A stretch of 64,000 nucleotides of DNA from Thermoplasmata archaeon (GTDB lineage: Archaea > Thermoplasmatota > Thermoplasmata > RBG-16-68-12). The notes under the pieces are model-generated. The model saw only the letters and a list, made by a program, of their open reading frames with translations, ran no database searches and was not told the origin of the DNA. Within the stretch, counting starts at the first letter, position 1. Each line of letters begins with the position of its first letter. The position numbers were made by a program, and so were the translations under genes. The stretch covers positions 2,735-66,734 of the forward strand of contig DATMDM010000166.1 in NCBI GenBank assembly GCA_035557795.1. The letters are read 5' to 3'. Positions 10,012 to 23,079 of this stretch are shown piece by piece.

Positions 10012-10086
10012 GCTCCCGTAGTCTAGTCCGGTCAAGGATCGGGGCCTTTCGAGCCTCAGACGCGGGTTCGAATCCCGCCGGGAGCA
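10012..10086 (+). tRNA. tRNA-Glu(UUC), CCA not encoded
   Basis: GCTCCCG acceptor pairs with CGGGAGC. Anticodon loop CTTTCGA. T-arm GCGGG-TTCGAAT-CCCGC. Discriminator A. Confidence 0.85.
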
Positions 10087-10206
10087 TGCTATTTTATATC
10101 ACGCGGCTGGTCGATGCTTGTTGAGTTGAAACAAGGAGACGGCAGGCTTATGCGGTCACCCTCGGTAGCTCAAGGAAAAGCAAGTCACTAGGGGTAGGGA
10201 ACCGCT

Positions 10207-11100
10207 GTGGATCTTTACGGACCGGGTTTCGAAGAACCCTTCGCGCTGGTCAAACGGCGCATATTCCGAACCGGAGTCCTGCAGGGGCTCCTCTTCGTCG
10301 CTGGAAGTCTTCCAACCGCGGTTGCGGGCGCAATCTACGGACTTTCCCCGGTCTTGGCGATCGGGATCTTGGGACTCGTCCTGAGTCTCTTGCCGTTTTC
10401 GGGCGCCGTTCGCATCTATCGCCGGCTAAGTGACCCGAGGGTAACGTCGGATGGGGTATACCTCCCGCTTCCGAAACGGTTCCTCGAAGGAGGATACCGT
10501 GTGCCTTCGGAAGCAATCGCCGGGGCTGAGCTCCACGAATCCCCGCCTAAGGCGTTTGTGAGCTTCGAGGTGAACACGGCAGAGGGTAGGCGGACGGTTG
10601 CCATCGAGAAGGGCCTGATCGTCAGCTGGCCTGCCTTCGTCCGGGCTCTCCATCTCCTCGGGATCAAGGGCGTCCGCGCACCGCACTCACCGCGGCCAGT
10701 GTCTGTGTTTGAGGACATGTTCAATCGATCGGGACGCCGCCGGTTGACGTACCTTGGTTTCGTCGGAGGCTTGGCCTGCAGCATTGTGGTCGGATTTTCC
10801 CTCAGGGTGAGCTTTACGCTCGTGGCGTTTGCGTTCTCGTCGCTTGTTTCGGTGCTAGTCGTCGCCCTTGCGCTTCTCTTAGCCCGGCGCGTTCCTCTTC
10901 ACGTCCAAGTCGATGGGCAACATGTTTCGATCCGGTTGTTCGGGCGGTCAAAGCCAGTCCGGTTGCAGCTCCCGCAGATTCGAGTTGGGGCCGCTTGGGT
11001 GACAAGGTTGTCCGGTGGTTCACAGGTAACGTACGGTCCCCTGGACTCGGAAATCGTTCGTCGTTTGGAGTCCGTTGCAAGGCCGGAGGGAGACACTTGA
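10207..11100 (+). CDS. Membrane-anchored protein, paralog family A (N-terminal TM helices plus C-terminal soluble domain)
   Basis: 297 aa. Same architecture as the 13202 and 13915 ORFs. Confidence 0.4.
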   Translation: MDLYGPGFEEPFALVKRRIFRTGVLQGLLFVAGSLPTAVAGAIYGLSPVLAIGILGLVLSLLPFSGAVRIYRRLSDPRVTSDGVYLPLPKRFLEGGYRVPSEAIAGAELHESPPKAFVSFEVNTAEGRRTVAIEKGLIVSWPAFVRALHLLGIKGVRAPHSPRPVSVFEDMFNRSGRRRLTYLGFVGGLACSIVVGFSLRVSFTLVAFAFSSLVSVLVVALALLLARRVPLHVQVDGQHVSIRLFGRSKPVRLQLPQIRVGAAWVTRLSGGSQVTYGPLDSEIVRRLESVARPEGDT

Positions 11101-13193
11101 GCCTCTCAGGTGGTTCGCGGTTCATCGCGATCCTTGGCCTCACTGTTTCGATCAGCCGCAACACAGTTGAAGGCGCGTGGCTTGGGCTCGTAATGGCTGG
11201 GATTGGTTTGCTCATCACAGTTGCCAACCAGGACATTTTTGACCTCAGCCCTGTTTCTCCTTTAAACGCCGTTGAAGAGGTTGTGAGTACGGTGGCGGTC
11301 GGAGCCGCCGTCGCGGCGTACTGGTGGACCACGCCGCCGGGGACCCGAAACACCGTGCAGGGGCACTACCTGTCCGTCGACGTGCCGGACGATTCGACGT
11401 CCGTGAACATCACGCTGCAGATGTGGTCCTACGACTCCAGCGGACACAACCAGCACTCGAACATCGCGATTGCCCAGGATTGCGAGACGGTCGGGGGCGT
11501 CCTCGTCTGCTATGATCGGTACGGTCCGGTGACGTTCCAGTACTACCTTCAGGCGCCATACCACTCCACGTGGTACAACTTCTCAGGCCACGACGGCGGC
11601 AGTCTTCAAGCCCTTCCACTCACCGTCATCGTCTCGACGATCGTGCCGTACCGGATCGGCACGTCCCTCATCGTGCCGGCAGACTATTCGGGGATTTACA
11701 ACGTCACCGATTCCCAAGGGAACATCCTCGCGCGGCGCTACACGGGCGAACCGCGGTTCGTCGCGCTCCTGCTTAACGTGACGTCGATTGCGGGCACGGA
11801 TCCGGAGGCGATCCTTGTCCCGCGGTCGTTGTTCTTCTCGACTCTCCTCTACTCATATCTGAACTCGACGAGTCCGCCGACCCTCGTGAGCCAGCTCTCG
11901 TATGGGCAGAACGCTACGACGGCGTCGGCGAACGCGGACGACCTGCAGGAAGTCCTCTACGGCAACGTCACCCTAGACGACTTCCTGACGATCGTCGACG
12001 ACCTCGAGGTCAACGCGTCCGGTGGGACGATCGGCCGATCGTTCGTCTTCTCGATCAACGACGAGGTCGCAGGGAACCCGCTCTTCTACTCCCTCCCCGA
12101 CCGCGTCGTGCGGCTCGTCGGCTACCTCCCGCCCCTGACGGCTTCCTCGTGGTCGTACACGTTCTGCACGTCGTCTTGCGGTCAACCCACGCAGAGGCCG
12201 TGGTGGGAAGCCGTCTGGAATGGCTTCGTGTCGGTCGTCACGGGCGTGGTGCAAGCGGCGATCGTCATCGCCGCGACCGCATTCAAGGCGATCAGTACCG
12301 TCCTCGCGCAGGTCGGCGCGTGGCTCGTGGCCGCCGGGAACGCGGTCAAGAGCGCGGTGCAAGCGGCGGCGAAAGTGCTGGGACAGGTGCTTGAATTCGT
12401 TACGTTGCTCGTTAGGCAGATGGTCCAAAAGCTCATCGGTCCGCTACTCGCCGGGCTGAGCGAATCGACATCTGAGACACGCCTATCGGTCCAGAGCGCG
12501 TACCCCTCAGCCCTACGGCAGTACCAAACCATGGGCTCTCTCGACCCTTCTACGATTCAGGGGCTCGTCAACGTTCTCGCCGGGAAATACATCTGGATCC
12601 TCCTCGGGCTGAGTGCCGCCGTCGTGGCGATAGGAATTGCTCTCTACCCGATCGCACCAATTGGTTTGGCAATCATGACCGTAGCGGGCGCTATCGCGGG
12701 TGCGCTACTCTTCAAGGCAATTACCGGCGTCGACTTCGCGCTGCCGGCGAAGACTCCGTCCGTTGGACTCATGAACCCATTCAGCAGTAGCGTCTCCGAG
12801 ATTGCCTTAGCCTACGCCAACGCGGTGAGTCCGGACCCACAACTTGCCGACGAGCGGAAATCTGAGGCGGCTCTGGCGTCTATCGTTTTCGGTGCCTTCG
12901 CGGGATTCATCGGTCTAGCTGCCCTCTCAGCGGTCGATCCCACCGGTACCACTATCGCCCTCGCCGGAGTGGTCATATCAGCTGCAGGAGCTCTCTTGGC
13001 AGGGGCGGCAGTGCTTCCTGGAGCATCGGGCCTTGCAATTCTCGCTCTAGGGTTCGCGTTTTCTGGTTTCGTGGCCGCCCTCGCGGGCTTGGCGGCCTCA
13101 TACATCGCCGGGAATTCTGGCGCCGTCTTCGCGGGTTGGATCAGCTTCGATTTGTCACTCGGGTCGATTGCTTTCGCGATAGTGGCTTTGTGA
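11097..13193 (+). CDS. Large predicted membrane glycoprotein (N-terminal TM hairpin, sequon-rich ectodomain, C-terminal Ala/Gly-rich multi-TM region)
   Basis: ~698 aa from a TTG overlapping the upstream stop. At least 8 N-x-S/T sequons. The C-terminal ~250 aa are strongly hydrophobic and A/G-rich. No catalytic motifs. Confidence 0.45.
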   Translation: MSLSGGSRFIAILGLTVSISRNTVEGAWLGLVMAGIGLLITVANQDIFDLSPVSPLNAVEEVVSTVAVGAAVAAYWWTTPPGTRNTVQGHYLSVDVPDDSTSVNITLQMWSYDSSGHNQHSNIAIAQDCETVGGVLVCYDRYGPVTFQYYLQAPYHSTWYNFSGHDGGSLQALPLTVIVSTIVPYRIGTSLIVPADYSGIYNVTDSQGNILARRYTGEPRFVALLLNVTSIAGTDPEAILVPRSLFFSTLLYSYLNSTSPPTLVSQLSYGQNATTASANADDLQEVLYGNVTLDDFLTIVDDLEVNASGGTIGRSFVFSINDEVAGNPLFYSLPDRVVRLVGYLPPLTASSWSYTFCTSSCGQPTQRPWWEAVWNGFVSVVTGVVQAAIVIAATAFKAISTVLAQVGAWLVAAGNAVKSAVQAAAKVLGQVLEFVTLLVRQMVQKLIGPLLAGLSESTSETRLSVQSAYPSALRQYQTMGSLDPSTIQGLVNVLAGKYIWILLGLSAAVVAIGIALYPIAPIGLAIMTVAGAIAGALLFKAITGVDFALPAKTPSVGLMNPFSSSVSEIALAYANAVSPDPQLADERKSEAALASIVFGAFAGFIGLAALSAVDPTGTTIALAGVVISAAGALLAGAAVLPGASGLAILALGFAFSGFVAALAGLAASYIAGNSGAVFAGWISFDLSLGSIAFAIVAL

Positions 13194-13201
13194 GGTGAGG
13201 A

Positions 13202-13627
13202 ATGTCGGAGTGGGTGATTCTGACCACGGAGCGGTTTATCCGAAGGCTCCGCTTGATTTACCTCGCGGCCGCCATTGGACTAGTAATCGTCGCCATCCTT
13301 CTGTGGTTGTCCACGCTTAGTAGTCTGGCTGTGATTTCCGGGGCCGCGGCTTGGGCGGTCACGGTTGCGATCGCGGTCGCGAATTACAACGCGAAGCGAG
13401 GAGTCCCATCACGCGTAACTTTCGAGGAATCAGGCATTCGAGTCAGGTACCTGACCGGAAAGGAAAGGGGCATCTCATGGGTCGAAATCGAATCGATTCG
13501 CAAAGTCTCTTCAGGACCGTTGATTCTCAAATTGAGGGGAGGCGCGCCATTAACAATCCGCACTTCCAGAGACGAAGCCGCCATGGCCGTCTCTCTGTTT
13601 CAAGCCCATCAGATTCCAGTTACCTAA
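13202..13627 (+). CDS. Membrane-anchored protein, paralog family A
   Basis: 141 aa. Two N-terminal TM helices, then a ~70-aa soluble domain. Confidence 0.4.
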   Translation: MSEWVILTTERFIRRLRLIYLAAAIGLVIVAILLWLSTLSSLAVISGAAAWAVTVAIAVANYNAKRGVPSRVTFEESGIRVRYLTGKERGISWVEIESIRKVSSGPLILKLRGGAPLTIRTSRDEAAMAVSLFQAHQIPVT

Positions 13628-13899
13628 TGAGTCCGCCAAACTGGCCGGCGATGCCGCGACTTAAGCTCACAGGGTTCACAGTGGCAATCATCGGCCTGTT
13701 CGTTTCTCTGAACAGCAACACAATCGAAGGTGCATGGCCCGGGCTCGTCCTAGCTGGGATTGGTTTGCTCATCACAGTTGCCAACCAGGACATTTTCGAC
13801 CTTAGCCCTGTTTCTCCCTTGAACGCCGTTGAAGAGGTTGTGAGTACGGCGGCGGTCGGAGCCGCCGTCGCGACGTTGGCGGCAGACTATGGGCGGTAA
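13627..13899 (+). CDS. Truncated paralog of the N-terminal TM hairpin of the 11097 glycoprotein
   Basis: MSPPNWPAMPRLKLTGFTVAIIGLFVSLNSNTIEGAWPGLVLAGIGLLITVANQDIFDLSPVSPLNAVEEVV aligns residue for residue with the start of the 11097 ORF. About 121 bp are ~95% identical at nucleotide level. Confidence 0.35.
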   Translation: MSPPNWPAMPRLKLTGFTVAIIGLFVSLNSNTIEGAWPGLVLAGIGLLITVANQDIFDLSPVSPLNAVEEVVSTAAVGAAVATLAADYGR

Positions 13900-13914
13900 C
13901 CAGGGAAGGTCATC

Positions 13915-14472
13915 TTGTTGACAGCGAAGCAAGGTTCGCTTGTCAAGCAGACAGAACGCGCTTTTCGAGGAGGTGGCTTAGGCGTTCTCGTGGCTTCTGC
14001 AATCGTCTTGCTTGTGGCGCTCGGCCTTTTCCCCGGAATTACCCTGCGACCGATTAGCGGGTCAGAGACACCAACGAAAGTCGCCGCGCTCGTCGCGTTC
14101 GCGGCTGGAATTCTCGTCGGCCTCGTGCTTCTCGGGTATTCGTACCGCGGGTTCGAAGAAATGACTCTTGATGCGAACGGTGTAATCTTCCCCATACGCT
14201 CCTTGGGCAGAATGGTTCGAGGGCTTCGACAGGTCGTCCGCTACTCCGACATCAGTGAGGCTCACTTCCTCGTGAACACGAAAGGGGTTCCACTGGTCGA
14301 ACTGAGGGTTCGCTCGCCTGCGGGAAGGACCCGACTCCTTCGGTTCGCCACCAGCTGGTCCTCGAATCCCGACCGTTTCATCGAAACCCTTTCGGCGCAC
14401 GTCCAAGTCAGCAAAGTGGTGGGCTGGGAGCAGCTGTGGTTCGAATGGCGCTCAAAGGCAAAGCGTCAATGA
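13915..14472 (+). CDS. Membrane-anchored protein, paralog family A
   Basis: 185 aa. N-terminal TM helices, then a soluble beta-rich domain. Confidence 0.4.
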   Translation: MLTAKQGSLVKQTERAFRGGGLGVLVASAIVLLVALGLFPGITLRPISGSETPTKVAALVAFAAGILVGLVLLGYSYRGFEEMTLDANGVIFPIRSLGRMVRGLRQVVRYSDISEAHFLVNTKGVPLVELRVRSPAGRTRLLRFATSWSSNPDRFIETLSAHVQVSKVVGWEQLWFEWRSKAKRQ

Positions 14473-14628
14473 CTCCTACGCCTGCCTAGGCCCCGCCAAC
14501 GACTCATGGGAGAAACTCCTGATCCATCACCTAGCGTTGCGAGTGCCACGCCGGCCGCGGAAATCCGGTTTCCTGTTGAACCGGTCGTCGCATGACGCTT
14601 GCCGGAGGGACACGCTAACGCGCTGCCG

Positions 14629-14760
14629 TGGAACCGGCTACAAGTACGGCTTCAGAGCCCAATCGTAGAAACTTTCCACTGGCATATCTCTTGATGGGCT
14701 TGCCGGGTTTGCTTGCCAATAGACCGACTTCCCGCCGGGAGCATGCTATTTCATAGCACG
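14629..14760 (+). repeat. att-like direct repeat copy 2 (conserved ~100-bp leader plus tRNA-Glu 3'-end core)
   Basis: ggaaccggctacaagtacggc...tttccactggcatatctcttgatgggcttgccgggtttgcttgccaatagaccgacttcccgccgggagcatgctattt. Confidence 0.6.
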
Positions 14761-14930
14761 CTTACGGTCGAGTTCAGCGACTCCTTGCTCGGCTTTTTTG
14801 CAACCATCGGCGGCTGACGCATCGCGCAGGAGGAAGCAGACACTGATACCCGGTGCTCTACCTCCTGGCGTAACGTCGGAGAGGATTGATGCGTCCACGC
14901 AACGATGCGGACAATCGCCGATCCGATCGT

Positions 14931-15347
14931 CTAAGATGAGCGGACCACTTCCGGACTGAAGGCCTGGGTGAGCTGCAAGAGCCGGTCGTAGGCGGTTCGG
15001 TGTCGCAGCTTGATTGTAATCGAGTCTCCTTGATCGGGCGTAATCGTCATATGTCCGACCCCCAAACCCGGCTTCTTGAGCTTGATGCGGCGTATTTGGT
15101 CCTTTGCAATATCGAACTCCTTTAACCGGTCGAGGTCCTCGATCACCTTGGCGCTCTCCTCAGGAGATAGGTTTGGCATGAGCTCGCCTTTGATGAAGCC
15201 GGCTAGGGTGCCGCCGAGGGCTCCACCGCCGTGGCTGCCAAGGTCGATGCCGATCACTCTAGTCGTCGTGAAGTACAGCCCGTATCCGACGTGGAATCCC
15301 TTTTCCAGGAAGCCGCCCGCGAATCCTCCAAGAAACGTCTCTCCCAT
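14931..15347 (-). CDS. Hypothetical glycine-rich protein
   Basis: Trimmed to internal M (MGETFLGG). No known motif. Confidence 0.3.
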   Translation of the reverse strand: MGETFLGGFAGGFLEKGFHVGYGLYFTTTRVIGIDLGSHGGGALGGTLAGFIKGELMPNLSPEESAKVIEDLDRLKEFDIAKDQIRRIKLKKPGLGVGHMTITPDQGDSITIKLRHRTAYDRLLQLTQAFSPEVVRSS

Positions 15348-15424
15348 GTTGGCGTCCAGTCGGCTCCACTCGGGTGTCGGCAGAGTCCGCACGGCTACGT
15401 TCGGGCTTGAAGCTTGTGTTTCAA

Positions 15425-15507
15425 GGATTCGAACCTCTTCGCGAGCGGAGCCCGACATCGTACGACGGCGAACCGATGTTCAGCTCCTGGCGTGAGGTTC
15501 GAATCCC
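15425..15507. repeat. Inverted repeat with tRNA T-arm-like arms (ggattcgaacctc ... gaggttcgaatcc); possible tRNA-derived fragment or structured RNA
   Basis: 13-nt perfect inverted arms ~57 nt apart, with extra internal complementarity (ggagc/gctcc). Neither arm folds into a valid T-arm or cloverleaf. Confidence 0.35.
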
Positions 15508-15674
15508 GTGAGGTCCGCACCCCATGGGATGACCGACAGGCAACCGACAGTCCTCGATTTCTGGATGATCCATGCCTCGGGATCCTCTTCCCGGGAAGAT
15601 CCACGAAATTGCGCGACAGTACCCGCGGGCGTTCTCGGTCAAGCGCCATATAATGGACGCGTCGTCTCCTGTCC

Positions 15675-16274
15675 GTGCGCAGAGTCCAGGCCACGACCGG
15701 TCCGATCACGGACCGGGGGACGAAAGGCTCCAGGACAGTACAAGCGGCCTTCGTGGCAGGCGCTACTGGGAAATGGAAGGTCGAGAGACTAGAAGCTATC
15801 CGCGGGCCGCCGTTGGCGAAGGCCAGCCACTTGGAGGTCAGCCTCGGACTCAAGACAACTCCGCAGCACGCTGCGTGGATACTCCGCGGGATCACCAGCC
15901 ACGAGCGTTATGCAACACGGTCCGAGCACGACCGTCTCGCCGCCGTGCAACCCCCTCTTGAACGGGCGGGAGCGACAGGAGCCGCCCTCATCCCCATCGC
16001 CAAGTCAGCGGAATGGTGGGAGCTGCCCCAGGACGAACGACGTGCGATTCTCGAAGAAGACTCGCACCATATCGCGATCGGCCTCGAGTACCTCCCTGCG
16101 ATCGCCCGACGCCTCTACCATTGCCGCGACCTTGGCCAGCCCTTTGACTTCCTGACATGGTTCGAGTACTCACCCTCCGATGCGGCCTCGTTCGAGCAGC
16201 TCGTAACGCGGCTTCGCAGAACGCGAGAATGGGAGTACGTCGAACGCGAAATCGACATCAGGCTCGCCCGCTAG
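15675..16274 (+). CDS. Chlorite dismutase (Cld/HemQ/DyP) family protein, island-borne copy
   Basis: The C-terminal EWWELPQDERRAILEEDSHHIAIGLEYL...FDFLTWFEYSPSDAASFEQLVTRLRRTREWEY matches the Cld/HemQ C-terminal pattern. The start is uncertain; it may lie further upstream. Confidence 0.5.
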   Translation: MRRVQATTGPITDRGTKGSRTVQAAFVAGATGKWKVERLEAIRGPPLAKASHLEVSLGLKTTPQHAAWILRGITSHERYATRSEHDRLAAVQPPLERAGATGAALIPIAKSAEWWELPQDERRAILEEDSHHIAIGLEYLPAIARRLYHCRDLGQPFDFLTWFEYSPSDAASFEQLVTRLRRTREWEYVEREIDIRLAR

Positions 16275-16435
16275 GCACGGTTCAGGCCTTGTCTGTCGGT
16301 GTAGCGCTCGTCACCGGCTGGAAAGGGTACGGGCCTGCTGGGATTCGTCTCAATCCATGTGATCGCACTCGGTCACAGAGGACTAAGTTCCGCCTTCGAT
16401 CGGGTGGCGTTATGGAAAGCGATGATTCCCGTGCC

Positions 16436-16570
16436 GGGAACCGGCCGTAAGTACGGCTTCAAAGCCTGTCGGTAGAAAACTTTCCACTGGCACATCTCTT
16501 GATGGGCTTGCCGGGTTCACTTGCCAATAGACCGACTTCCCGCCGGGAGCATGCTATTTTGTGACACGCC
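16436..16570 (+). repeat. att-like direct repeat copy 3
   Basis: Same leader plus core as copy 2, with about 85-90% identity. Confidence 0.6.
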
Positions 16571-16712
16571 GCATCATTCGCCGCACGCGCGAAATGTTTC
16601 CGACACCCGCTTAATCGACTTCGGTTGCCGACCTACTCGCCCGGTGTGCCGAGTACACGCGGTTTCTGATAAAGCCCAACTTTCGCTCCGGACTCCAGCC
16701 ACCCGGGCTCAG

Positions 16713-18131
16713 CTAGATGGCGCAGCAACTGAGCTTGTCCACGTCCTCGAAGAATGAGAGGGCGGCGAGCTTGATCGCCTCGCTGTGGGTTGGGAACACG
16801 TGGACGGTATCGATGATGTCCTCGAGGGTGAGGCTATGCTTTACCGCGAGGACGCCCTCGTGGATCATGTCCGGCGCCAGGGAGGCCAGAATGTGCACCC
16901 CGAGGATCTTGTGGCTCTTCGCCTCCGCGACAATCTTCACCAGGCCGCGGGTGTCTTCCACGATTAGGGGCTTGGGGACCTGCTTCAACATAATCGTATT
17001 GCAAGCGCACCGGACTCGGCCGCCCGCGTTCGCCTGGGCGTCGGTAGGCCCGACGGAGGCGACGGCGGGATTGGTGAACACGGCGTGAGGCACCGCGCGG
17101 TAATCCATCTTCAGGCCGCGATTGGCCAAGGCGTTCTCCGCAGCGATGTATCCTTCTTTCGCCGCAACAGTCTCGAGCATCGGTTTCCCGATCACGTCGC
17201 CCGCCGCGAAGATGTCTGGCGCGGTCGATCGCATCTCGGAGTCGACCTTCACCCCCTGATCTTGCTTCACCTCGACGCGCGCCGCCTGGAGGTTAAGCCC
17301 CGCGGTGTTGGGGGTTCGACCCGTGGCTAGGAGCAGCTCGTCCGCTTCGATGGTGCGTTTCCGGTCGCCAATGCGAGCGACCATGATCTTCCGCCCGTTT
17401 CGCTGTTCGGCTGAGAGGACTTCCGCGCCGGCATGGATCTCGACTCCATCCTCTTTCAGGTACTGGTTCAAGTACTCAGAAATCTCCGGCTCCTCTTCCG
17501 GAACGATTCGCGGGCTGCGCTGCAGGACCGTCACCTGTGTGCCGAGATGCTGGTACATCTGGGCGAACTCCAAGCCAAGGGCGCGGCCGCCGAGGACGAT
17601 CATGGAATCGGGTCGCTCCTTCAGGGACAAGGCCTCCACGTTTGTGAGGTAGTCCACCTTGTCGATTCCCGGAACCGAAGGAATCGTGGGTGAGGAACCG
17701 GTACCGATGAGGAACTTGTCTCCTTCGTACCGCTCCGTGCCGACCTTGACTTCATGGGATGAGACAAAGGCGGCATGGCCCCGCACGTATTCCACGTCCT
17801 TCAGGGACGCGAGGACATCCGCGTACTTCGCCTTGCGGAGGTCGGCAACCAAGCGTTCCTTCGAGCGCATCACCGCTCGGAATTCCGCCGACCATCCGTC
17901 TTCGAGATGGAGCCCCGGGAACGGACGGTTCGCCACGCGAAAGAACTGGTCCCCGACCGCAAGGAGGCGTTTGCTGGGAACGCAGCCCACGTTCACGCAG
18001 GTGCCGCCGAGGATGCCGCCGTCAATCATCAAGGCCTTCGCTCCGTTTCGATCGGCGCGGATCGCTGCGCTGAAGGCCGCTGCTCCGCCGCCGAGAATGA
18101 TCAGGTCTTGTCGCTTCGCCATCTGTTCCAC
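16713..18131 (-). CDS. merA: Mercuric reductase (core MerA, no NmerA domain)
   Basis: GGTCVNVGCVPSK redox-active disulfide. FAD and NAD Rossmann motifs. C-terminal vicinal Cys pair (LSCCAI) diagnostic for MerA. 472 aa. Confidence 0.85.
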   Translation of the reverse strand: MEQMAKRQDLIILGGGAAAFSAAIRADRNGAKALMIDGGILGGTCVNVGCVPSKRLLAVGDQFFRVANRPFPGLHLEDGWSAEFRAVMRSKERLVADLRKAKYADVLASLKDVEYVRGHAAFVSSHEVKVGTERYEGDKFLIGTGSSPTIPSVPGIDKVDYLTNVEALSLKERPDSMIVLGGRALGLEFAQMYQHLGTQVTVLQRSPRIVPEEEPEISEYLNQYLKEDGVEIHAGAEVLSAEQRNGRKIMVARIGDRKRTIEADELLLATGRTPNTAGLNLQAARVEVKQDQGVKVDSEMRSTAPDIFAAGDVIGKPMLETVAAKEGYIAAENALANRGLKMDYRAVPHAVFTNPAVASVGPTDAQANAGGRVRCACNTIMLKQVPKPLIVEDTRGLVKIVAEAKSHKILGVHILASLAPDMIHEGVLAVKHSLTLEDIIDTVHVFPTHSEAIKLAALSFFEDVDKLSCCAI

Positions 18132-18167
18132 CTTTCCCTCCTCGCTTTCAAATCCATCGGCGCGGAC

Positions 18168-19859
18168 TCATCGAGTAGATTCGCCAACCGAGCGGGACCT
18201 ATGGGAATCTTTGGGCTTCTGCGCAGCCACGACCACGCTCTCCGCCCCGAACGTCTTCGTGATTCGCCTCGTGCTCTCCGAGGATGACTTCGCAAAGTAG
18301 TCGAGCCGCTTCAGGACTCGGACATCGGAGAACCCCGCCGACTTGATCATCTCTAGGTACTCCGGCTCCACCGCCGCCCCGCCGATGCAGTCTGCCCACA
18401 GCTGCGGGTTCAGCCCGCACACGGTGCCCACGTCCTCCTGCACGACAATGTCCGCGAGCTGGAGGCGCCCGCCCGGCTTGAGGACACGGCGAATCTCCGC
18501 GAACGCCGCGACCTTGTCCGGCACGAGGTTCAGGACGCCATTGCTCGTGACGACGTCGACGCTTGAGTCGGGGAGAGGGATCTCCGTGGCGTCCCCCGCT
18601 AGAATCTCGATGTTCTCTGCGCCTATCCGCTCGATGTTCCCGCGCGCCTTCGCGATCATCGCGGGCGTGATGTCGAGCCCGTAGACCTTCCCCGACGGAC
18701 CGGTCTTGAGGCACGCATACAGCACGTCCGTCCCGGAGCCGGACCCGATGTCGAGCACGGTATCGCCGGACCGAATCGCGTTGGCGGCGTGCGGATAGCC
18801 GACGCCTGCGAAGGATTCTGTCGCCGTCGGCGGCAGCTTACGCAGGTCCTCTTCCGGGTAGCCCACGTATAGGAGCGCCTCCAGACCGAGCGGGAAGTGG
18901 TACCCCTTGTCGGGCCGCGTCGCGACCTCCGTGTATAGCGATTGCACCGCCTTCGTGATGATCGGTTTGAGGTCTGAGACCGTCTCGACCTGGACTTCGG
19001 GCGGCACGTGCGAGATCTTCACGATTTCAAGAGGCAGCTTGTCCGCCTTCGTTCCCTTCCACTGCCAGGCTTCGATTCCTTCGAAGTCGTGGTGGGTCAG
19101 GAGCCCGGCTCGCTCCAACTGGGATAGCCGTATTTCGGCGTCTTCCACCCCAATCCGGAAGACGGATGCGATTTCATTCGCGGTCGTCAAGTCCCTGTGG
19201 TGCTCCAAGTATTCCAGGATGTCCGCAGGACTTCGCTTCGGGAGCCCGGGGGCGAGCTTGTCCACCATGTCCTCGAACGGTTTCGCGGTGAACGTCGCGC
19301 CCTTTATTTCCGCCTGTCCTCGACGATTCCGCACGAGGAGGGCGTCAAAGTTCGCATGGGCCCGCGCCATCTCCTGCCGATCTCGCTCGAACGCGTCCTT
19401 CACCGCATCCGAATGGATTTCCTTTCGGAAGCGATCCTTGTCGAGCCCAACCTCCGCCGCCAATTTCACGAGGGTGTCTTCCGTGGCGGGCAGACATTCG
19501 AGCCCGAACGCTTCCATCATCCGTCGGAAGTACTTCGCTGCTAGTTCCCTGGATTGGAGCTCCGCCGCCTTGAACGCTCGGCACGCGGGGAACGAGCTCT
19601 CGACCTTGCTCCGGAAGTAGTAATCGGGCCGCACGGGCATTTTGATGAGCGCGATGGATTCGAGGATCCAGTCAACCGTGCCCCGCTCATCGACCCCGTT
19701 CTCCCGCATCCACTCCGCTAAGGTCTCGAACTCCCCGCCCATCTTGTACGTGACCTCCACGTTATCCCCGTACACCTCCCGCAGGCGTTGCAGAATCGGC
19801 TCAAGGCCCCACGACCACCAGCACCACGGGTCTGCGAAGTGGACTATCTCGATGGGCAC
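18168..19859 (-). CDS. arsM: Three-domain fusion: DsbA-like thioredoxin-fold (CxxS variant), winged-HTH, and arsenite S-adenosylmethionine methyltransferase (ArsM)
   Basis: N-terminus DPWCWWSWG (DsbA/FrnE-like). Middle ILEYLEHHRDLTTANEIASV...LERAGLL (wHTH). C-terminus VLDIGSGSGTDV...GKVYGLDITPAMIAKAR...LKPGGRLQLADIV with conserved Cys (TVCG, DCIGGA) typical of ArsM. Confidence 0.65.
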   Translation of the reverse strand: MPIEIVHFADPWCWWSWGLEPILQRLREVYGDNVEVTYKMGGEFETLAEWMRENGVDERGTVDWILESIALIKMPVRPDYYFRSKVESSFPACRAFKAAELQSRELAAKYFRRMMEAFGLECLPATEDTLVKLAAEVGLDKDRFRKEIHSDAVKDAFERDRQEMARAHANFDALLVRNRRGQAEIKGATFTAKPFEDMVDKLAPGLPKRSPADILEYLEHHRDLTTANEIASVFRIGVEDAEIRLSQLERAGLLTHHDFEGIEAWQWKGTKADKLPLEIVKISHVPPEVQVETVSDLKPIITKAVQSLYTEVATRPDKGYHFPLGLEALLYVGYPEEDLRKLPPTATESFAGVGYPHAANAIRSGDTVLDIGSGSGTDVLYACLKTGPSGKVYGLDITPAMIAKARGNIERIGAENIEILAGDATEIPLPDSSVDVVTSNGVLNLVPDKVAAFAEIRRVLKPGGRLQLADIVVQEDVGTVCGLNPQLWADCIGGAAVEPEYLEMIKSAGFSDVRVLKRLDYFAKSSSESTRRITKTFGAESVVVAAQKPKDSHRSRSVGESTR

Positions 19860-20268
19860 GTCGTCTCTCGACGCTGTATCGCCCCCGCGCCGGCATCCGA
19901 GGGCCTCGACTTAAGTCTTCCCGGACGACGTCGCGACGACTCCTTGCCGGTCCGCATCGCCCGAAATTGCCGCGCATTTCTTGAACGCATCCGTCGGGGC
20001 GTTGACGATTGGTTGGCAGCCTGTCACCACACGTTCCTATCGCCGCTCAGAACCGTGGGAGCGGGGCCAGGAGGTCAAACGCAACGGGCAAAAGCCCACC
20101 AGTATTACGAAGATCAATGCGATCTCATACACACGCGCTCGCACTTGGCGGCATCAAAGGTCAGGTCGTCCGCATCAACAAGAAGACGACCAAGCCAATC
20201 CGACCGTTGGAACCCGAGCAAGTGGAAGCTTGACTGGACGGGGACAACAAGAGCGCTAATTCCCGTAG

Positions 20269-20386
20269 CGGGAACCGGCCGTACGCACAGTTCTAAGGCC
20301 CAACGATAGAAATTTTCCACTGGCATATCTCTCGATGGGCTTGCCGGGTTTGCTTGCCAATGTACCGACTTCCCGCCAGGAGCATC
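20269..20386 (+). repeat. att-like direct repeat copy 4 (degenerate core ttcccgccaggagcat); likely island boundary
   Basis: The leader is conserved. The core diverges after gagcat. Confidence 0.5.
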
Positions 20387-20575
20387 CCCAAACGAGTTCG
20401 CGGAGCCTTCGTCAAGTTCGAGCGCGCCAGTTGCCGTCTATATAGTCCCTGTCAGTCTCGCCTTTATAGACGCGATTCAATCGGGCCCCTCGAAGGTTTT
20501 TGTGTGAACGCCTCATTCGCTCGACACGCCCAACGCGCCGCTCGCGGTTCCGGAAGGCCGCGGCTGCTTCGGCTC

Positions 20576-21349
20576 ATGATCGTCATCGCGGCGGTCCTGA
20601 TCGTTTCGGTCTTGCCGGCGACCGTGCGCGCGAACAATTCCGAGACCAGGCCCACGATCGTCCTCGTCCACGGCGCTTGGGCCTCGGCGCCCGGCTGGGA
20701 CACGGTCGTCGCGGGGCTCCAGAAGGACGGGTTCGCGACCGCGACCCCGACCCTCGGCCTGCTGTCGATCGCCGACGACGTCGCGATCGTCCGTGCGGTG
20801 CTCGACGGCATCTCGGGCCCGAAGATCCTCGTTGGACACTCGTACGGTGGGATCGTGATCTCCAACGCGGCGTACGGCCGGTCCGACGTGCTCGGCCTTG
20901 TCTTCACCGCAGCGTTCGTTCCCGATCAGGGTGACTCGATATTCAGCCTCGGCGCGGGCTTCCATACATCCGAGGCGTTCAACCACTTCATCTGGACGGG
21001 CACGCCCTTCGCTTCACCGGCCTTCATTGACCCGGCCTTTTTCGCGCAGTTCTTCTGTCAGGACCTCAACCCGAACCTCGGGGCGATCCTGAACGATGAG
21101 CAGATCCCGCTCAACTTCCCGATCGCTGTGACCCCGTCCGGGCCGGTCGCGTGGCATACGCTGCCGTCCTGGTACGCCATCTCGGGGAAGGACCTGATGG
21201 TCGATCCTGCGGAGGAACTCTTCATGGCGCAGCGGGCCGGGGCGACGACCGTCTTGTTCCCTGCGGCGAGTCACGCGGGAGGAATCACCCACTATGCGAC
21301 CGGATTCGTGAAGCTCATCGAGGAGGCCGTCCAGGAGACGGCGGATTGA
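20576..21349 (+). CDS. Secreted alpha/beta hydrolase
   Basis: Signal-peptide-like N-terminus, then LVHGAW...GHSYGG nucleophile elbow. The listed ORF start at 20354 overlaps att copy 4, so the true start is probably GTG 20504 or ATG 20576. Confidence 0.55.
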   Translation: MIVIAAVLIVSVLPATVRANNSETRPTIVLVHGAWASAPGWDTVVAGLQKDGFATATPTLGLLSIADDVAIVRAVLDGISGPKILVGHSYGGIVISNAAYGRSDVLGLVFTAAFVPDQGDSIFSLGAGFHTSEAFNHFIWTGTPFASPAFIDPAFFAQFFCQDLNPNLGAILNDEQIPLNFPIAVTPSGPVAWHTLPSWYAISGKDLMVDPAEELFMAQRAGATTVLFPAASHAGGITHYATGFVKLIEEAVQETAD

Positions 21350-21452
21350 CCGGGCCGGGTTCGACCAAAACCCTATACGTCGCCGAAGATGTTAGACGCC
21401 GAGCCAAGCACGCAGCTGACCACTCCTTAACGGTCAGCGATCAAGGTCAAAC

Positions 21453-21959
21453 GTGAAGATGAAAGAGTTTCAGACGAAAAACCAAAAAGTCTCGCCGTTG
21501 AAGCCCGGCACCAAGGCGCCAAACTTCACCCTCAAGACGACGCCGGATCAGCACGTCTCTCTCAGGGATTTTCTCGGAAGGCCCGTGGTACTTTGCTTCT
21601 ATCCTGCGGATTGGAGCCCCGTCTGCAGCGACCAGCTGGGACTCTATGCGCAGTTGATGTCTGAGTTCAGGAAGTTCGACGCCGAACTCCTCGGAGTCTC
21701 CGTCGACGGAGTCTGGAGTCATCTGGCGTTTTCGAAGGATCGCAACCTGAACTTCCCCCTTCTCTCCGACTTCGATCCGAAAGGGGCGATCTCCAGGACC
21801 TACGGGGTCTTCACCGAACGCAACGGCGAATCGGCGCGGGCGCTCTTCGTGATCGATCCGAAGGGGATCATCCGATGGAGCTACCTCTCACCGGACGGGG
21901 TCAATCCGGGGGCTGACGGAATCCTCTCCGCACTGGAGAAACTCAAATCACCCGGCTGA
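21453..21959 (+). CDS. Peroxiredoxin (AhpC/TSA/Bcp family)
   Basis: FYPADWSPVCSDQ peroxidatic Cys motif. 168 aa. Confidence 0.8.
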   Translation: MKMKEFQTKNQKVSPLKPGTKAPNFTLKTTPDQHVSLRDFLGRPVVLCFYPADWSPVCSDQLGLYAQLMSEFRKFDAELLGVSVDGVWSHLAFSKDRNLNFPLLSDFDPKGAISRTYGVFTERNGESARALFVIDPKGIIRWSYLSPDGVNPGADGILSALEKLKSPG

Positions 21960-21964
21960 CGCGA

Positions 21965-22522
21965 GTGATCATGGCGAAGCAGAATTACCAACCGCCGAGA
22001 CTGACTCTGCCCGTCGGAGAACGGGACCACAGTGAAGGGCCGTCCGATGCTCGAATGGTGCTCGTCGAGTACGGGGATTACCAGTGTCCCTACTGCGGCG
22101 CGGCCTACCCGATCGTGAAGAAGGTCCAGAAGGAACTTGGAACGAAGCTGCGGTTCGTCTTCAGAAACTTCCCCATCACGACCTCCCACCCGGAAGCGGA
22201 ATGGGCCGCGGAAACCGCCGAAGCGGCCGCCGACCAAGGGAGGTTCTGGGAGATGCACGATTTTCTCTACGAGAACCAAGCATCGCTCGGCGACCACGGA
22301 TTCTTCAACACTTACGAGAAGAAACTCAAGCTGGATGTGAAGCGGCTCGAGCAGGAGGTGGCTCAGCACGTCCATGCAGGCAGAGTTCGAGAAGACTTCA
22401 TGAGCGGCGTCCGAAGCGGCGTCAACGGGACGCCGACGTTCTTCATCGGGGCCGCTCGATACGATGGCTATCCCGGATTTGGTCCCTTGATCGCCGCGCT
22501 CGAAAAGGCCGAGAAGGGTTGA
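21965..22522 (+). CDS. DsbA-like thiol:disulfide oxidoreductase (thioredoxin fold, CPYC)
   Basis: YGDYQCPYCG active site. 185 aa. Confidence 0.65.
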   Translation: MIMAKQNYQPPRLTLPVGERDHSEGPSDARMVLVEYGDYQCPYCGAAYPIVKKVQKELGTKLRFVFRNFPITTSHPEAEWAAETAEAAADQGRFWEMHDFLYENQASLGDHGFFNTYEKKLKLDVKRLEQEVAQHVHAGRVREDFMSGVRSGVNGTPTFFIGAARYDGYPGFGPLIAALEKAEKG

Positions 22523-22623
22523 CCGTGACCGCTCCGTAGCAGGGTCGCGTTAGTCGGCACCTCGGTGCGATTGCTTGAACTCATAGCAAAGCGATAAATC
22601 CAGCCCTCACTTAGTCCTCGACT

Positions 22624-23079
22624 ATGCCCATGATTGACGTGTACGCGCCGGCAGACCTTTTTCCGGCCGGGACCAACAGTCTGCTTGGCAAGGAGCTCAC
22701 CATGGCCGTTCTCCGCGCGGAGGGCGTGGCAAGCCCCGGGCCCTTCCATCTGAATAACACCGCTGCTTTCATCCACCGAATGGACCCGAACGCGGTCCAC
22801 ACCGCGGCAACCAGCTCCGCCCGCACGGTGCGTGTCCAGGTCATCACGCCTCCCGCGGCGTTGACCCGCGAAGGCCAGAAGCAACTTGTCAAAGAAATCA
22901 CGGAGATCGTGACCAAGGTCTCTGGAGATCCGACACAGGCGAGTCGCACCTGGGTAATACTCACCGAGGCGGCAGAGGGCGGTTGGGGGCTCTCGGGCAC
23001 CGCCTTTGGCCGCGAGGAGTTCGCGGCGCTCGCCGCCAAGGCGGCCGCGGCCCGCGCGAAGAGCGTGACGCCCCAGTAG
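22624..23079 (+). CDS. Tautomerase-superfamily-like protein (tentative)
   Basis: The N-terminal MPMIDVY looks like the Pro1 start of 4-oxalocrotonate tautomerase-like proteins. 151 aa. Weak call. Confidence 0.3.
   Translation: MPMIDVYAPADLFPAGTNSLLGKELTMAVLRAEGVASPGPFHLNNTAAFIHRMDPNAVHTAATSSARTVRVQVITPPAALTREGQKQLVKEITEIVTKVSGDPTQASRTWVILTEAAEGGWGLSGTAFGREEFAALAAKAAAARAKSVTPQ

Follow-up and report, generated by a model that had tools for sequence, protein, structure and literature searches.

We analysed a gene in a 64,000-nucleotide stretch of DNA from a soil archaeon of the Thermoplasmata (GenBank assembly GCA_035557795.1, contig DATMDM010000166.1; the whole stretch is referred to below as the window) and found that it encodes a fusion of two modules, an N-terminal module like the adaptor protein YjbH and a C-terminal S-adenosylmethionine (SAM) methyltransferase like the arsenite methyltransferase ArsM, of a group that we call the SNG clade. 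The SAM site is intact, the protein carries a conserved and unusual set of thiols (C13, C93, C481 and C491), and it fails the definition of ArsM. It represents a real, uncharacterised fusion family, and the evidence does not support calling it an arsenite methyltransferase. Its architecture is new, but it varies on the known ArsM-like and YjbH-like families and does not amount to a system of a new kind. Because the gene adjoins a mercury reductase gene in a swappable cassette, its product is probably a detoxification enzyme for a sulfur-loving substrate; arsenic is not well supported as that substrate.

Architecture and cysteine pattern of the fusion protein

The ORF listing and a direct codon check both gave a single unbroken open reading frame (ORF) of 563 amino acids (aa) on the minus strand, with a GTG start and a TGA stop at 18168-18170. 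The initial annotation had read a thioredoxin/DsbA-like domain with a CxxS motif, a winged helix and an ArsM-related SAM methyltransferase from this one ORF. Pfam and structure matching recovered the same domains, and no stop or frameshift separates them anywhere in 18168-19859. An identical protein of 563 aa has been called independently on JGI contigs, and HWM53641.1 is a deposited member of the 90% cluster of the window protein. The codon check placed FADPWCWWSWGLEP at aa 8-21, VLDIGSGSGTD at aa 368-378 and TSNGVLNL at aa 438-445, and located both C481 and C491 within VCGLNPQLWADCIGGA. Pfam assigns Thioredoxin_5 (PF13743) to aa 8-162 at 78 bits (cut-off 27), with DSBA at 33 bits, and several class I methyltransferase models to aa 362-477. 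From 100 family members, AlphaFold2 gave a model with a mean predicted local distance difference test score (pLDDT) of 88.9 and a predicted template modelling score (pTM) of 0.77. The gene and its parts are as follows.

18168..19859, minus strand: whole fusion gene, 563 aa, GTG start, TGA stop
19260..19859, minus strand: DsbA-like thioredoxin fold with helical insertion, aa 1-200 (Pfam Thioredoxin_5, phmmer; AlphaFold2 pLDDT 94-98)
19812..19823, minus strand: monothiol motif C13-W-W-S16, aa 13-16, in place of CxxC (codon check)
19581..19583, minus strand: Cys93 in the helical insertion, invariant in the family
19050..19232, minus strand: winged-helix domain, aa 210-270 (DSSP of the model, Foldseek to 6gho_B)
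18960..19049, minus strand: flexible linker between the modules, aa 271-300 (pLDDT <50 at residues 289-294)
18204..18959, minus strand: ArsM-like class I SAM methyltransferase of the SNG clade, aa 301-552 (NCBIfam, phmmer, Foldseek; motifs ESFAGVGYP, VLDIGSGSGTD and TSNGVLNL)
18387..18419, minus strand: C481-x9-C491 pair (C481 at 18417-18419 in TVCG, C491 at 18387-18389 in DCIGGA)

The C half of the protein finds its closest solved relatives in CmArsM, CrArsM and human AS3MT. Its best NCBIfam model is the arsenite methyltransferase model NF008823, at 211.8 bits and below the cut-off of 263, while phmmer aligns it with CmArsM (E 6e-24) and Foldseek matches it to 6cx6_A, 4fr0 and 5evj with probability 1.0, about 240 residues aligning at 29-31% identity. 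The class I SAM fold with the ArsM-type C-terminal substrate subdomain is present, the WxxC(I/L)GGA motif is common to the fusion and ArsM, and conservation extends to the loop sequences surrounding the Cys72 and Cys174 positions. Throughout the fusion family the SAM motifs remain intact and do not vary.

Arsenite methyltransferases are defined by four cysteines, in CmArsM Cys44, Cys72, Cys174 and Cys224, of which Cys174 and Cys224 make up the metalloid site and Cys44 and Cys72 serve a disulfide cascade that is recycled by thioredoxin (PMC6138428). When we aligned the two proteins, FYGCGS of CmArsM stood against FAGVGY of the fusion (Cys72 at Val353), SNCVCNL against SNGVLNL (Cys174 at Gly441), and GECLGGA against ADCIGGA (Cys224 at Cys491). 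No equivalent of Cys44 is present, there being no cysteine anywhere in fusion residues 123-382, and C481 aligns with an alanine of CmArsM and has no ArsM counterpart. The fusion thus retains the Cys224 equivalent alone. These substitutions are characteristic of the family: across 100 full-length members Gly441 is invariant and Val353 near-invariant (at least 90%), C93, C481 and C491 are invariant in 100/100, and beyond these and C13 there is no conserved cysteine. The N-terminal domain of ArsM is also replaced, by the 300-aa YjbH-like module. The initial annotation had proposed an ArsM catalytic domain with arsenic-binding cysteines in both TVCG and DCIGGA, to be judged by the ArsM cysteine triad. 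What stands of this is the ArsM-related fold, the SAM motif and the DCIGGA cysteine; what falls is the TVCG cysteine as a match to any in ArsM and, with the Cys72, Cys174 and Cys44 equivalents missing, the triad itself, while the NCBIfam score lies under its cut-off and no ars genes occur in the window or around relatives. We conclude that the fusion fails the ArsM definition.

The N half aligns by phmmer with Geobacillus YjbH over aa 2-249 (6ghb_B, E 8.6e-18), and its N-terminal part also matches VP2116 (3kzq). Foldseek places the N half of the model on a complete YjbH chain (6gho_B) over 274 columns, with a TM(target) of 0.87 and a root-mean-square deviation of 2.6 Å. The thioredoxin fold with helical insertion, the linker and the C-terminal winged helix are all there, as described for YjbH/SpxH (PMC7253607), and the DPxCxxxWGLEP motif is in register. 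Judging from the model, the DsbA-like and winged-helix parts are together one known two-domain unit, the YjbH/SpxH architecture. No NCBIfam model matches this half, the SpxH-type model included. The fusion differs from the Firmicute protein, a ClpXP adaptor, in being archaeal, in having CWWS rather than CPEC and Cys93 where Geobacillus YjbH has Ser, in an identity of only 20-22%, and in being covalently joined to an enzyme, with no Spx or ClpXP partner. The module is cytoplasmic, with no signal peptide and with strand beta-1 beginning at residue 3.

The CxxC of a DsbA-type dithiol oxidoreductase is absent. The free-standing DsbA-like proteins of COG3531 (VP2116, 3kzq; NE, 2in3) share Thioredoxin_5 and the Cys93 equivalent with the fusion but, unlike it, have a CSWC dithiol, no winged helix and no methyltransferase. 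Cys13 is present in 99/100 family members and Ser16 is invariant, and archaeal relatives generally carry CxWS, whether fused or free-standing.

Metalloid sensing had been suggested as one possible function of the fusion, which would fall to the winged helix. In the model, aa 214-267 form three helices and a beta hairpin (DSSP), and HTH_20 matches aa 212-256 at 20 bits, under the Pfam cut-off of 27. The domain has a net charge of -7 (family median -5) and its third helix one of -2, and it is therefore unlikely to bind DNA. Since it is acidic and aa 205-300 are without any cysteine, it is also unlike an ArsR-type DNA-binding sensor; nothing of the ArsR/SmtB ligand set is present. The winged helix belongs to the YjbH/SpxH module, and the fusion protein is not a winged-helix DNA-binding regulator. 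The notion that it is a one-component sensor-regulator, its winged helix binding DNA and controlling merA, might draw on the weak HTH_20 match and on the lack of a separate mer regulator in the window strain, whereas sister strains carry an HxlR regulator. We regard it as highly improbable, given the charge of the domain, its match to the YjbH winged helix, for which no DNA-binding role is described, and the fact that most homologues are not beside merA.

In YjbH, which works as an adaptor between proteins, the client is met at an interface made up of the thioredoxin domain and its helical insertion (PMC7253607). The equivalence of the N half to a whole YjbH chain is what would be expected if the fusion were an adaptor-guided protein methyltransferase or a proteolysis adaptor, its YjbH-like module recruiting a protein client as YjbH does ArsC-fold Spx. 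Thermoplasmata also encode free-standing YjbH-like proteins, with CFWS or CWWS and away from SNG methyltransferases, which fits an adaptor too. This is nonetheless quite improbable in our judgement. Neither the window nor any fetched locus holds an Spx or ArsC (Grx)-type homologue, the SpxH-type model does not match, and the SNG clade is mostly stand-alone or fused to small-molecule or sulfur-carrier domains. ClpXP, moreover, is not known as an archaeal system.

Although the fusion had been called unusual, it is common in Thermoplasmata metagenome-assembled genomes (MAGs). All of the best 120 matches of our first search (120/120) carry both Thioredoxin_5 and methyltransferase domains, and at least 100 full-length relatives of 540-580 aa are 62-93% identical to the window protein. 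The named relatives come from Thermoplasmata or "Methanobacteriota" MAGs, none with a specific annotation. Clustering at 50% reduces the family to a few representatives and one divergent type, the paralogue type P0124 (43% identity), in which C13, C481 and C491 are lost together and C93 is kept. One MAG, GCA_030157125.1, has two paralogues of the fusion. Neighbourhoods vary among lineages, and merA is not among them. We found no paper mentioning a YjbH-like/ArsM-like architecture, and MAG studies list "arsM" only generically; the family is present in public databases without specific annotation or literature. A candidate natural split form, P0397 with a 184-aa methyltransferase gene, proved to be a frameshifted fusion with the same synteny as locus L003. 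At L093/L094:6001-7667, in the synteny of the intact L003 gene, the frame of the fusion is broken, giving gene calls for a 387-aa 'DsbA family protein' and an overlapping 184-aa methyltransferase; this copy is either a pseudogene or an assembly error.

The SNG clade and its genomic company

In an exhaustive HMMER search over 1.84 billion representatives, the methyltransferase half came closest to bacterial proteins that stand alone, are about 262 aa long and have 50-58% identity to it. These carry FAGVG, SNGV and WxxC motifs as the fusion does and constitute the SNG clade; canonical ArsMs (GCG, SNCV) scored lower in the same search. More than 5,000 proteins matched one free-standing SNG member in a word-indexed search. 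This member, P0133, scores 197.8 bits on the NCBIfam ArsM model and so also lies under the cut-off of 263. C481 is absent from most of the clade.

Many bacterial SNG methyltransferases have an in-frame TGA exactly at the C491 (CmArsM Cys224) position, with conserved sequence continuing past it. Such loci, with selenocysteine (Sec)/Cys pairs, are L010, L011, L014-L026 and L029 (for example L017:3905-4642). The selenoprotein literature already lists this UxxG form of 'arsenite methyltransferase', along with its fusions to AhpD and DUF2284 (PMC13188914). The occurrence of Cys or Sec here marks C491 as the key residue, central to function; it does not thereby identify the substrate. We considered Sec at this position as an argument against arsenic and rejected it, since an arsenite methyltransferase verified by experiment is among the proteins listed with a UxxG Sec form (PMC13188914).

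Among the top representatives, SNG methyltransferases are fused to TusA (three times), CMD/AhpD, a MerC-like membrane domain and a MerT/HMA-like domain. One of the MerC-like fusions is above the Pfam threshold and one just below it, and the MerT/HMA-like match is sub-threshold. The NCBIfam ArsM-like fusion selenoproteins (NF041537, ArsM/AhpD; NF041536, ArsM/DUF2284; NF047649) have the same design as our fusion, an SNG methyltransferase with a thiol- or metal-handling domain and Cys or Sec at UxxG. The methyltransferase of the fusion aligns with them at 181-200 bits, starting at the very N-terminal helix (profile position 12 onward). It differs from them in its N-terminal YjbH-like partner, in having Cys and not Sec, and in falling far under their cut-offs of 460-575 bits. 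MddH and MddM, which methylate H2S and methanethiol, were considered as an identity for the clade and set aside; they are UbiE/UbiG-type, and their papers make no arsenite or ArsM link. An operon of an extracytoplasmic function (ECF) sigma factor, a zf-HC2 anti-sigma factor and an SNG methyltransferase is conserved at several independent bacterial loci (L008:9956-12436; L087-L092), usually with a second SNG-type methyltransferase gene nearby.

We compared genomic contexts using loci from a genome-collection scan, classing each hit by the residue at the Cys174 position (SNC or SNG). The scan was dominated by a generic EIxRVLKPGG pattern and yielded only one fusion locus. With ars context taken as ArsR, Acr3 or the low-molecular-weight protein tyrosine phosphatase (LMW-PTP) type of ArsC within 6 kb, we observed ars genes at 42/59 canonical (SNC) loci and at 3/41 SNG loci. 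A Pfam census within 3 kb of 16 canonical loci (117 ORFs) gave HTH_5 9, Acr3/SBF 5, LMWPc 5, GNAT 5 and ArsP 3, with no rhodanese among the top 25 neighbour families; canonical neighbours also include ArsN. The same census around 16 SNG loci (92 ORFs) gave Rhodanese 4, Response_reg 4, MFS 3 and HTH_5 3, with no Acr3, ArsC or ArsP among the top 25. The SNG clade therefore lies outside the ars system. The window itself holds no Acr3, ArsR, ArsC or Spx homologue in its 64 kb.

Fusions of an ArsR-type helix-turn-helix with a rhodanese domain are encoded on the same strand upstream of Sec-type SNG methyltransferases at L014:1717-2445 and L021:2845-3540; the gap is 27 nucleotides (nt) in L021, and an MFS gene intervenes in L014. 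L021:611-2242 encodes two rhodanese domains with an N-terminal part that, from its sequence motifs, has a metallo-beta-lactamase fold. In L002-L004 a rhodanese gene lies beside the archaeal fusion in convergent orientation, with OsmC nearby. A DsrE gene lies within locus L089. In the rhodanese search, an archaeal SseA-type seed gave no matches and GlpE-type seeds did. The recurring company of the SNG clade is sulfur-carrier and thiol-stress proteins, with occasional mer-type domains.

A thioredoxin-fold gene near a canonical ArsM was seen in Chitinophaga rupis (L046:13018-13734), where a 238-aa DsbA-like protein with the motif DPLCCWSW and a Cys93 equivalent is encoded convergently with an arsR-arsM-arsN-acr3 operon; no other bacterial member of this thioredoxin subfamily was seen near an ArsM.

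These contexts bear on whether the fusion is a genuine arsenite methyltransferase after all, with C481 and C491 standing in for Cys174 and Cys224 as the metalloid site, the DsbA-like domain supplying the redox cysteines, and the pair with MerA conferring mercury and arsenic resistance. Among characterised families ArsM comes closest in sequence, profile and fold, C491 corresponds to Cys224, and a two-thiol site suffices in ArsM for trivalent methylarsenic, MAs(III) (PMC6138428). In one relative (L007) an LMW-PTP ArsC-like gene lies at a distance of 3.6 kb, and public pipelines often label relatives 'arsenite methyltransferase'. We nevertheless judge this decidedly unlikely. Three of the four defining cysteines are missing, with Gly441 and Val353 fixed or nearly so in their places; the NCBIfam scores of the fusion and of P0133 are too low; ars genes are absent from the window and rare at SNG loci; and most of the SNG clade is without the C481 that such a site would use.

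The merA neighbour and the tRNA-Glu cassette array

As the initial annotation had stated, merA lies directly downstream of the fusion gene on the same strand, across a gap of 36 nt. Its product falls within the MerA family on the TIGR02053 model (561.6 bits; cut-off 454) and has the CVNVGC redox pair and the C-terminal CC (SCCAI). The pair of genes sits in an array of cassettes beside a tRNA gene, with the following features.

16713..18131, minus strand: merA, core-only mercuric reductase, 472 aa, no NmerA domain (TIGR02053, 561.6 bits)
18132..18167, minus strand: intergenic spacer between the fusion gene and merA, 36 nt, with GGAGG upstream of the merA start (sequence reading)
10012..10086, plus strand: tRNA-Glu(UUC), whose 3' end and 28 nt downstream (10072-10114) are reiterated at the repeat ends
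14617..14771, plus strand: repeat copy 1, boundary of cassettes 1 and 2 (repeat comparison)
16425..16579, plus strand: repeat copy 2, boundary of the cassette on its merA side; the final ~40 nt match the tRNA-Glu 3' end and downstream sequence
20258..20390, plus strand: repeat copy 3, bounding the upstream side of the fusion gene; tRNA-like end degenerate

From this arrangement, co-transcription of the fusion gene and merA is likely. The linkage is confined to near-identical strains, and merA is not beside any more distant fusion homologue that we examined. In sister strains (L098:253-3339, L106:1689-4775) the genes ahead of the same merA (90% aa identity) encode, in place of the fusion, an HxlR regulator, a DUF3237 protein and a MerB-family protein, the last scoring 67 bits on Pfam and lying below the NCBIfam MerB cut-offs. 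Nucleotide homology between these strains and the window ends at the merA 5' end (window position 18113), and no remnant of merB, HxlR or DUF3237 genes is found in the 64-kb window. The fusion gene thus shares with the upstream gene of merB-merA operons a cassette slot beside tRNA-Glu, though its product has no similarity to MerB. The fusion gene and merA are paired by a swap of modules at the level of strains, not as a conserved operon, and the compact mercury/arsenic detoxification cassette that had been proposed is not supported. In L099 (Ga0137417_1420782) the merA-fusion region occurs twice, inverted and with frame disruptions, which probably reflects chimeric or palindromic assembly of the contig.

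Given the merA linkage and the MerC-like fusions, a mercury-related role is conceivable. The fusion might be a mercury accessory of MerA, binding Hg(II) or an organomercurial through C13/C93 and C481/C491 and passing it to a reductase that has no N-terminal metal-binding domain of its own, from an operon position that a merB-family gene holds elsewhere. The 36-nt gap with its Shine-Dalgarno-like motif, the merB-family gene before the same merA in sister strains with homology breaking at the merA 5' end, and the fusion of methyltransferase relatives to MerC-like or MerT/HMA-like membrane domains all agree with this. We think it improbable, however. The more distant homologues that we examined lack the merA neighbour, one MerC match alone passes the Pfam threshold, and the adjacency could be cassette accretion. 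SAM donates an electrophilic methyl group, for which Hg(II) is an unlikely acceptor, and the invariant SAM motifs favour real methyl transfer over a chaperone role.

Window positions 10012-21360 form a tRNA-Glu-linked array of at least four gene cassettes separated by direct repeats of about 140-155 nt. The repeats occur in three copies, of which the second and third exactly enclose the fusion-merA pair. Their ends are an imperfect inverted pair, GGGAACCGG and CCGACTTCCC. We rejected a structured RNA as the nature of the repeat, since folding gave no significant z-scores (-1.9 to +0.1) and Rfam no match; nor did the repeat match anything in the viral collection. The repeat core was found in 12 metagenome contigs with common flanks, tRNA-Glu and an AhpC gene (from about 21358), and differing cargo: mer genes and genes for P-type ATPase-like, GNAT-like, DNA methylase, alpha/beta hydrolase and membrane proteins. 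For example, L100 and L104 are missing the alpha/beta-hydrolase unit, L105 carries P-type ATPase-like and GNAT-like acetyltransferase genes (identities read from translations), and others carry unrelated genes, among them a DNA methylase gene in L106. Since the repeat-bounded cassettes vary in cargo among related contigs, the description of this segment as mobile is borne out. Direct repeats of a tRNA 3' end around variable cargo are as in a tRNA-linked integrative island; the integrase of such an island was not seen, there being no integrase or recombinase family in the ORFs scanned with Pfam; the remaining cargo ORFs of the variants were read by eye.

Several other features of the window were observed. 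A 193-nt direct repeat (11127-11319 and 13684-13876, 86% identity) duplicates an N-terminal coding segment of two membrane-protein ORFs in cassette 1. Only the C-terminal half (aa 101-195) of the chlorite-dismutase-family ORF of cassette 2 (15675-16274) fits Pfam, and the ORF may be truncated or mis-started. To the right of the island, 21453-23079 encodes an AhpC/Prx peroxiredoxin, a Thioredoxin_4/DsbA-like protein with CPYC and a tautomerase-family protein, a thiol-redox cluster that is the conserved flank in all variants. ARAGORN called a 96-nt tRNA-Pro(UGG), presumably with an intron, at 2268-2363, which Rfam did not report at its gathering threshold.

A proposed thiol-relay methyltransferase

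We propose that the fusion is a cytoplasmic, catalytically competent SAM methyltransferase of the SNG clade with a non-DNA-binding thiol-relay or docking module in cis, carried as merA-cassette cargo. As a whole we place this reading slightly short of an even chance. C491, the sole retained ArsM ligand, probably helped by the clade-specific C481, would hold a thiophilic nucleophile that is methylated by SAM. The YjbH-like module, with its C13-x-x-S motif, Cys93 and acidic winged helix, would act as the relay or docking partner, with Cys13 either delivering the substrate to the C481/C491 site or resolving the state of those cysteines. Such a relay would replace the Cys44/Cys72 pair and the external thioredoxin of canonical ArsM. 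In the window strain the fusion gene probably shares a transcript with merA, the two making up the cargo of a single cassette in the tRNA-Glu-linked array of swappable stress genes.

A thiol relay fits because SNG methyltransferases have been fused repeatedly and independently to thiol or sulfur-carrier domains, because the paralogue type P0124 has lost its three cysteines together, and because the moderately high pTM may reflect a defined inter-domain arrangement. We infer a chalcogen on cysteine (sulfane sulfur or selenium, as a persulfide or perselenide) or another soft metalloid to be a likelier substrate than inorganic As(III). In a rough division, a chalcogen is possible though not likely, arsenic or antimony is unlikely, and there is about an even chance that the substrate is something else. 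The genomic context, as circumstantial evidence, puts a chalcogen or sulfane-sulfur substrate ahead of arsenite.

Several observations weigh against the thiol-relay proposal. The joint loss of C13, C481 and C491 is a single lineage event, and the C481-C491 loop is poorly modelled (pLDDT 52-76). The free-standing YjbH-like genes of Thermoplasmata are not beside SNG methyltransferases and some are without Cys13, and the YjbH-like module therefore has a role of its own. The sulfur-relay association comes from few loci, the rhodanese gene beside the archaeal fusion is convergently oriented, and the merA linkage and MerC-like fusions point to mercury, not sulfur. Arsenic stays compatible as well, with Sec at the Cys224 position of a listed, experimentally verified arsenite methyltransferase (PMC13188914), and we found no biochemically characterised SNG-clade member in the literature.

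A bolder form of the thiol-relay proposal, which we advance tentatively and consider rather unlikely as a whole, is that the fusion represents a new mechanistic class of the ArsM superfamily: a self-contained methyltransferase with a thiol relay across its domains, in which the YjbH-like module provides the thiol missing from the methyltransferase. It would methylate cysteine-bound sulfane sulfur or selenium or another soft metalloid, and would in this lineage have been recruited to work with MerA, in the slot held by a merB-family gene in sister strains. If true, the YjbH/SpxH fold would here serve in an enzyme, and in archaea, for the first time.

Metagenome surveys routinely count "arsM" by homology, and the SNG clade is a large group within that homology that has neither the arsenic-binding cysteines nor the ars context. 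Arsenic-methylation potential may therefore be over-called, and other detoxification chemistry overlooked. The fusion offers a directly testable hypothesis, an ArsM-like enzyme working with an in-built redox partner, and it extends the YjbH/SpxH fold beyond the proteolysis adaptors of Firmicutes. The exchange of merA, merB-family and fusion genes at the tRNA-Glu hotspot provides a compact natural experiment on how soil archaea shuffle their metal-stress genes.

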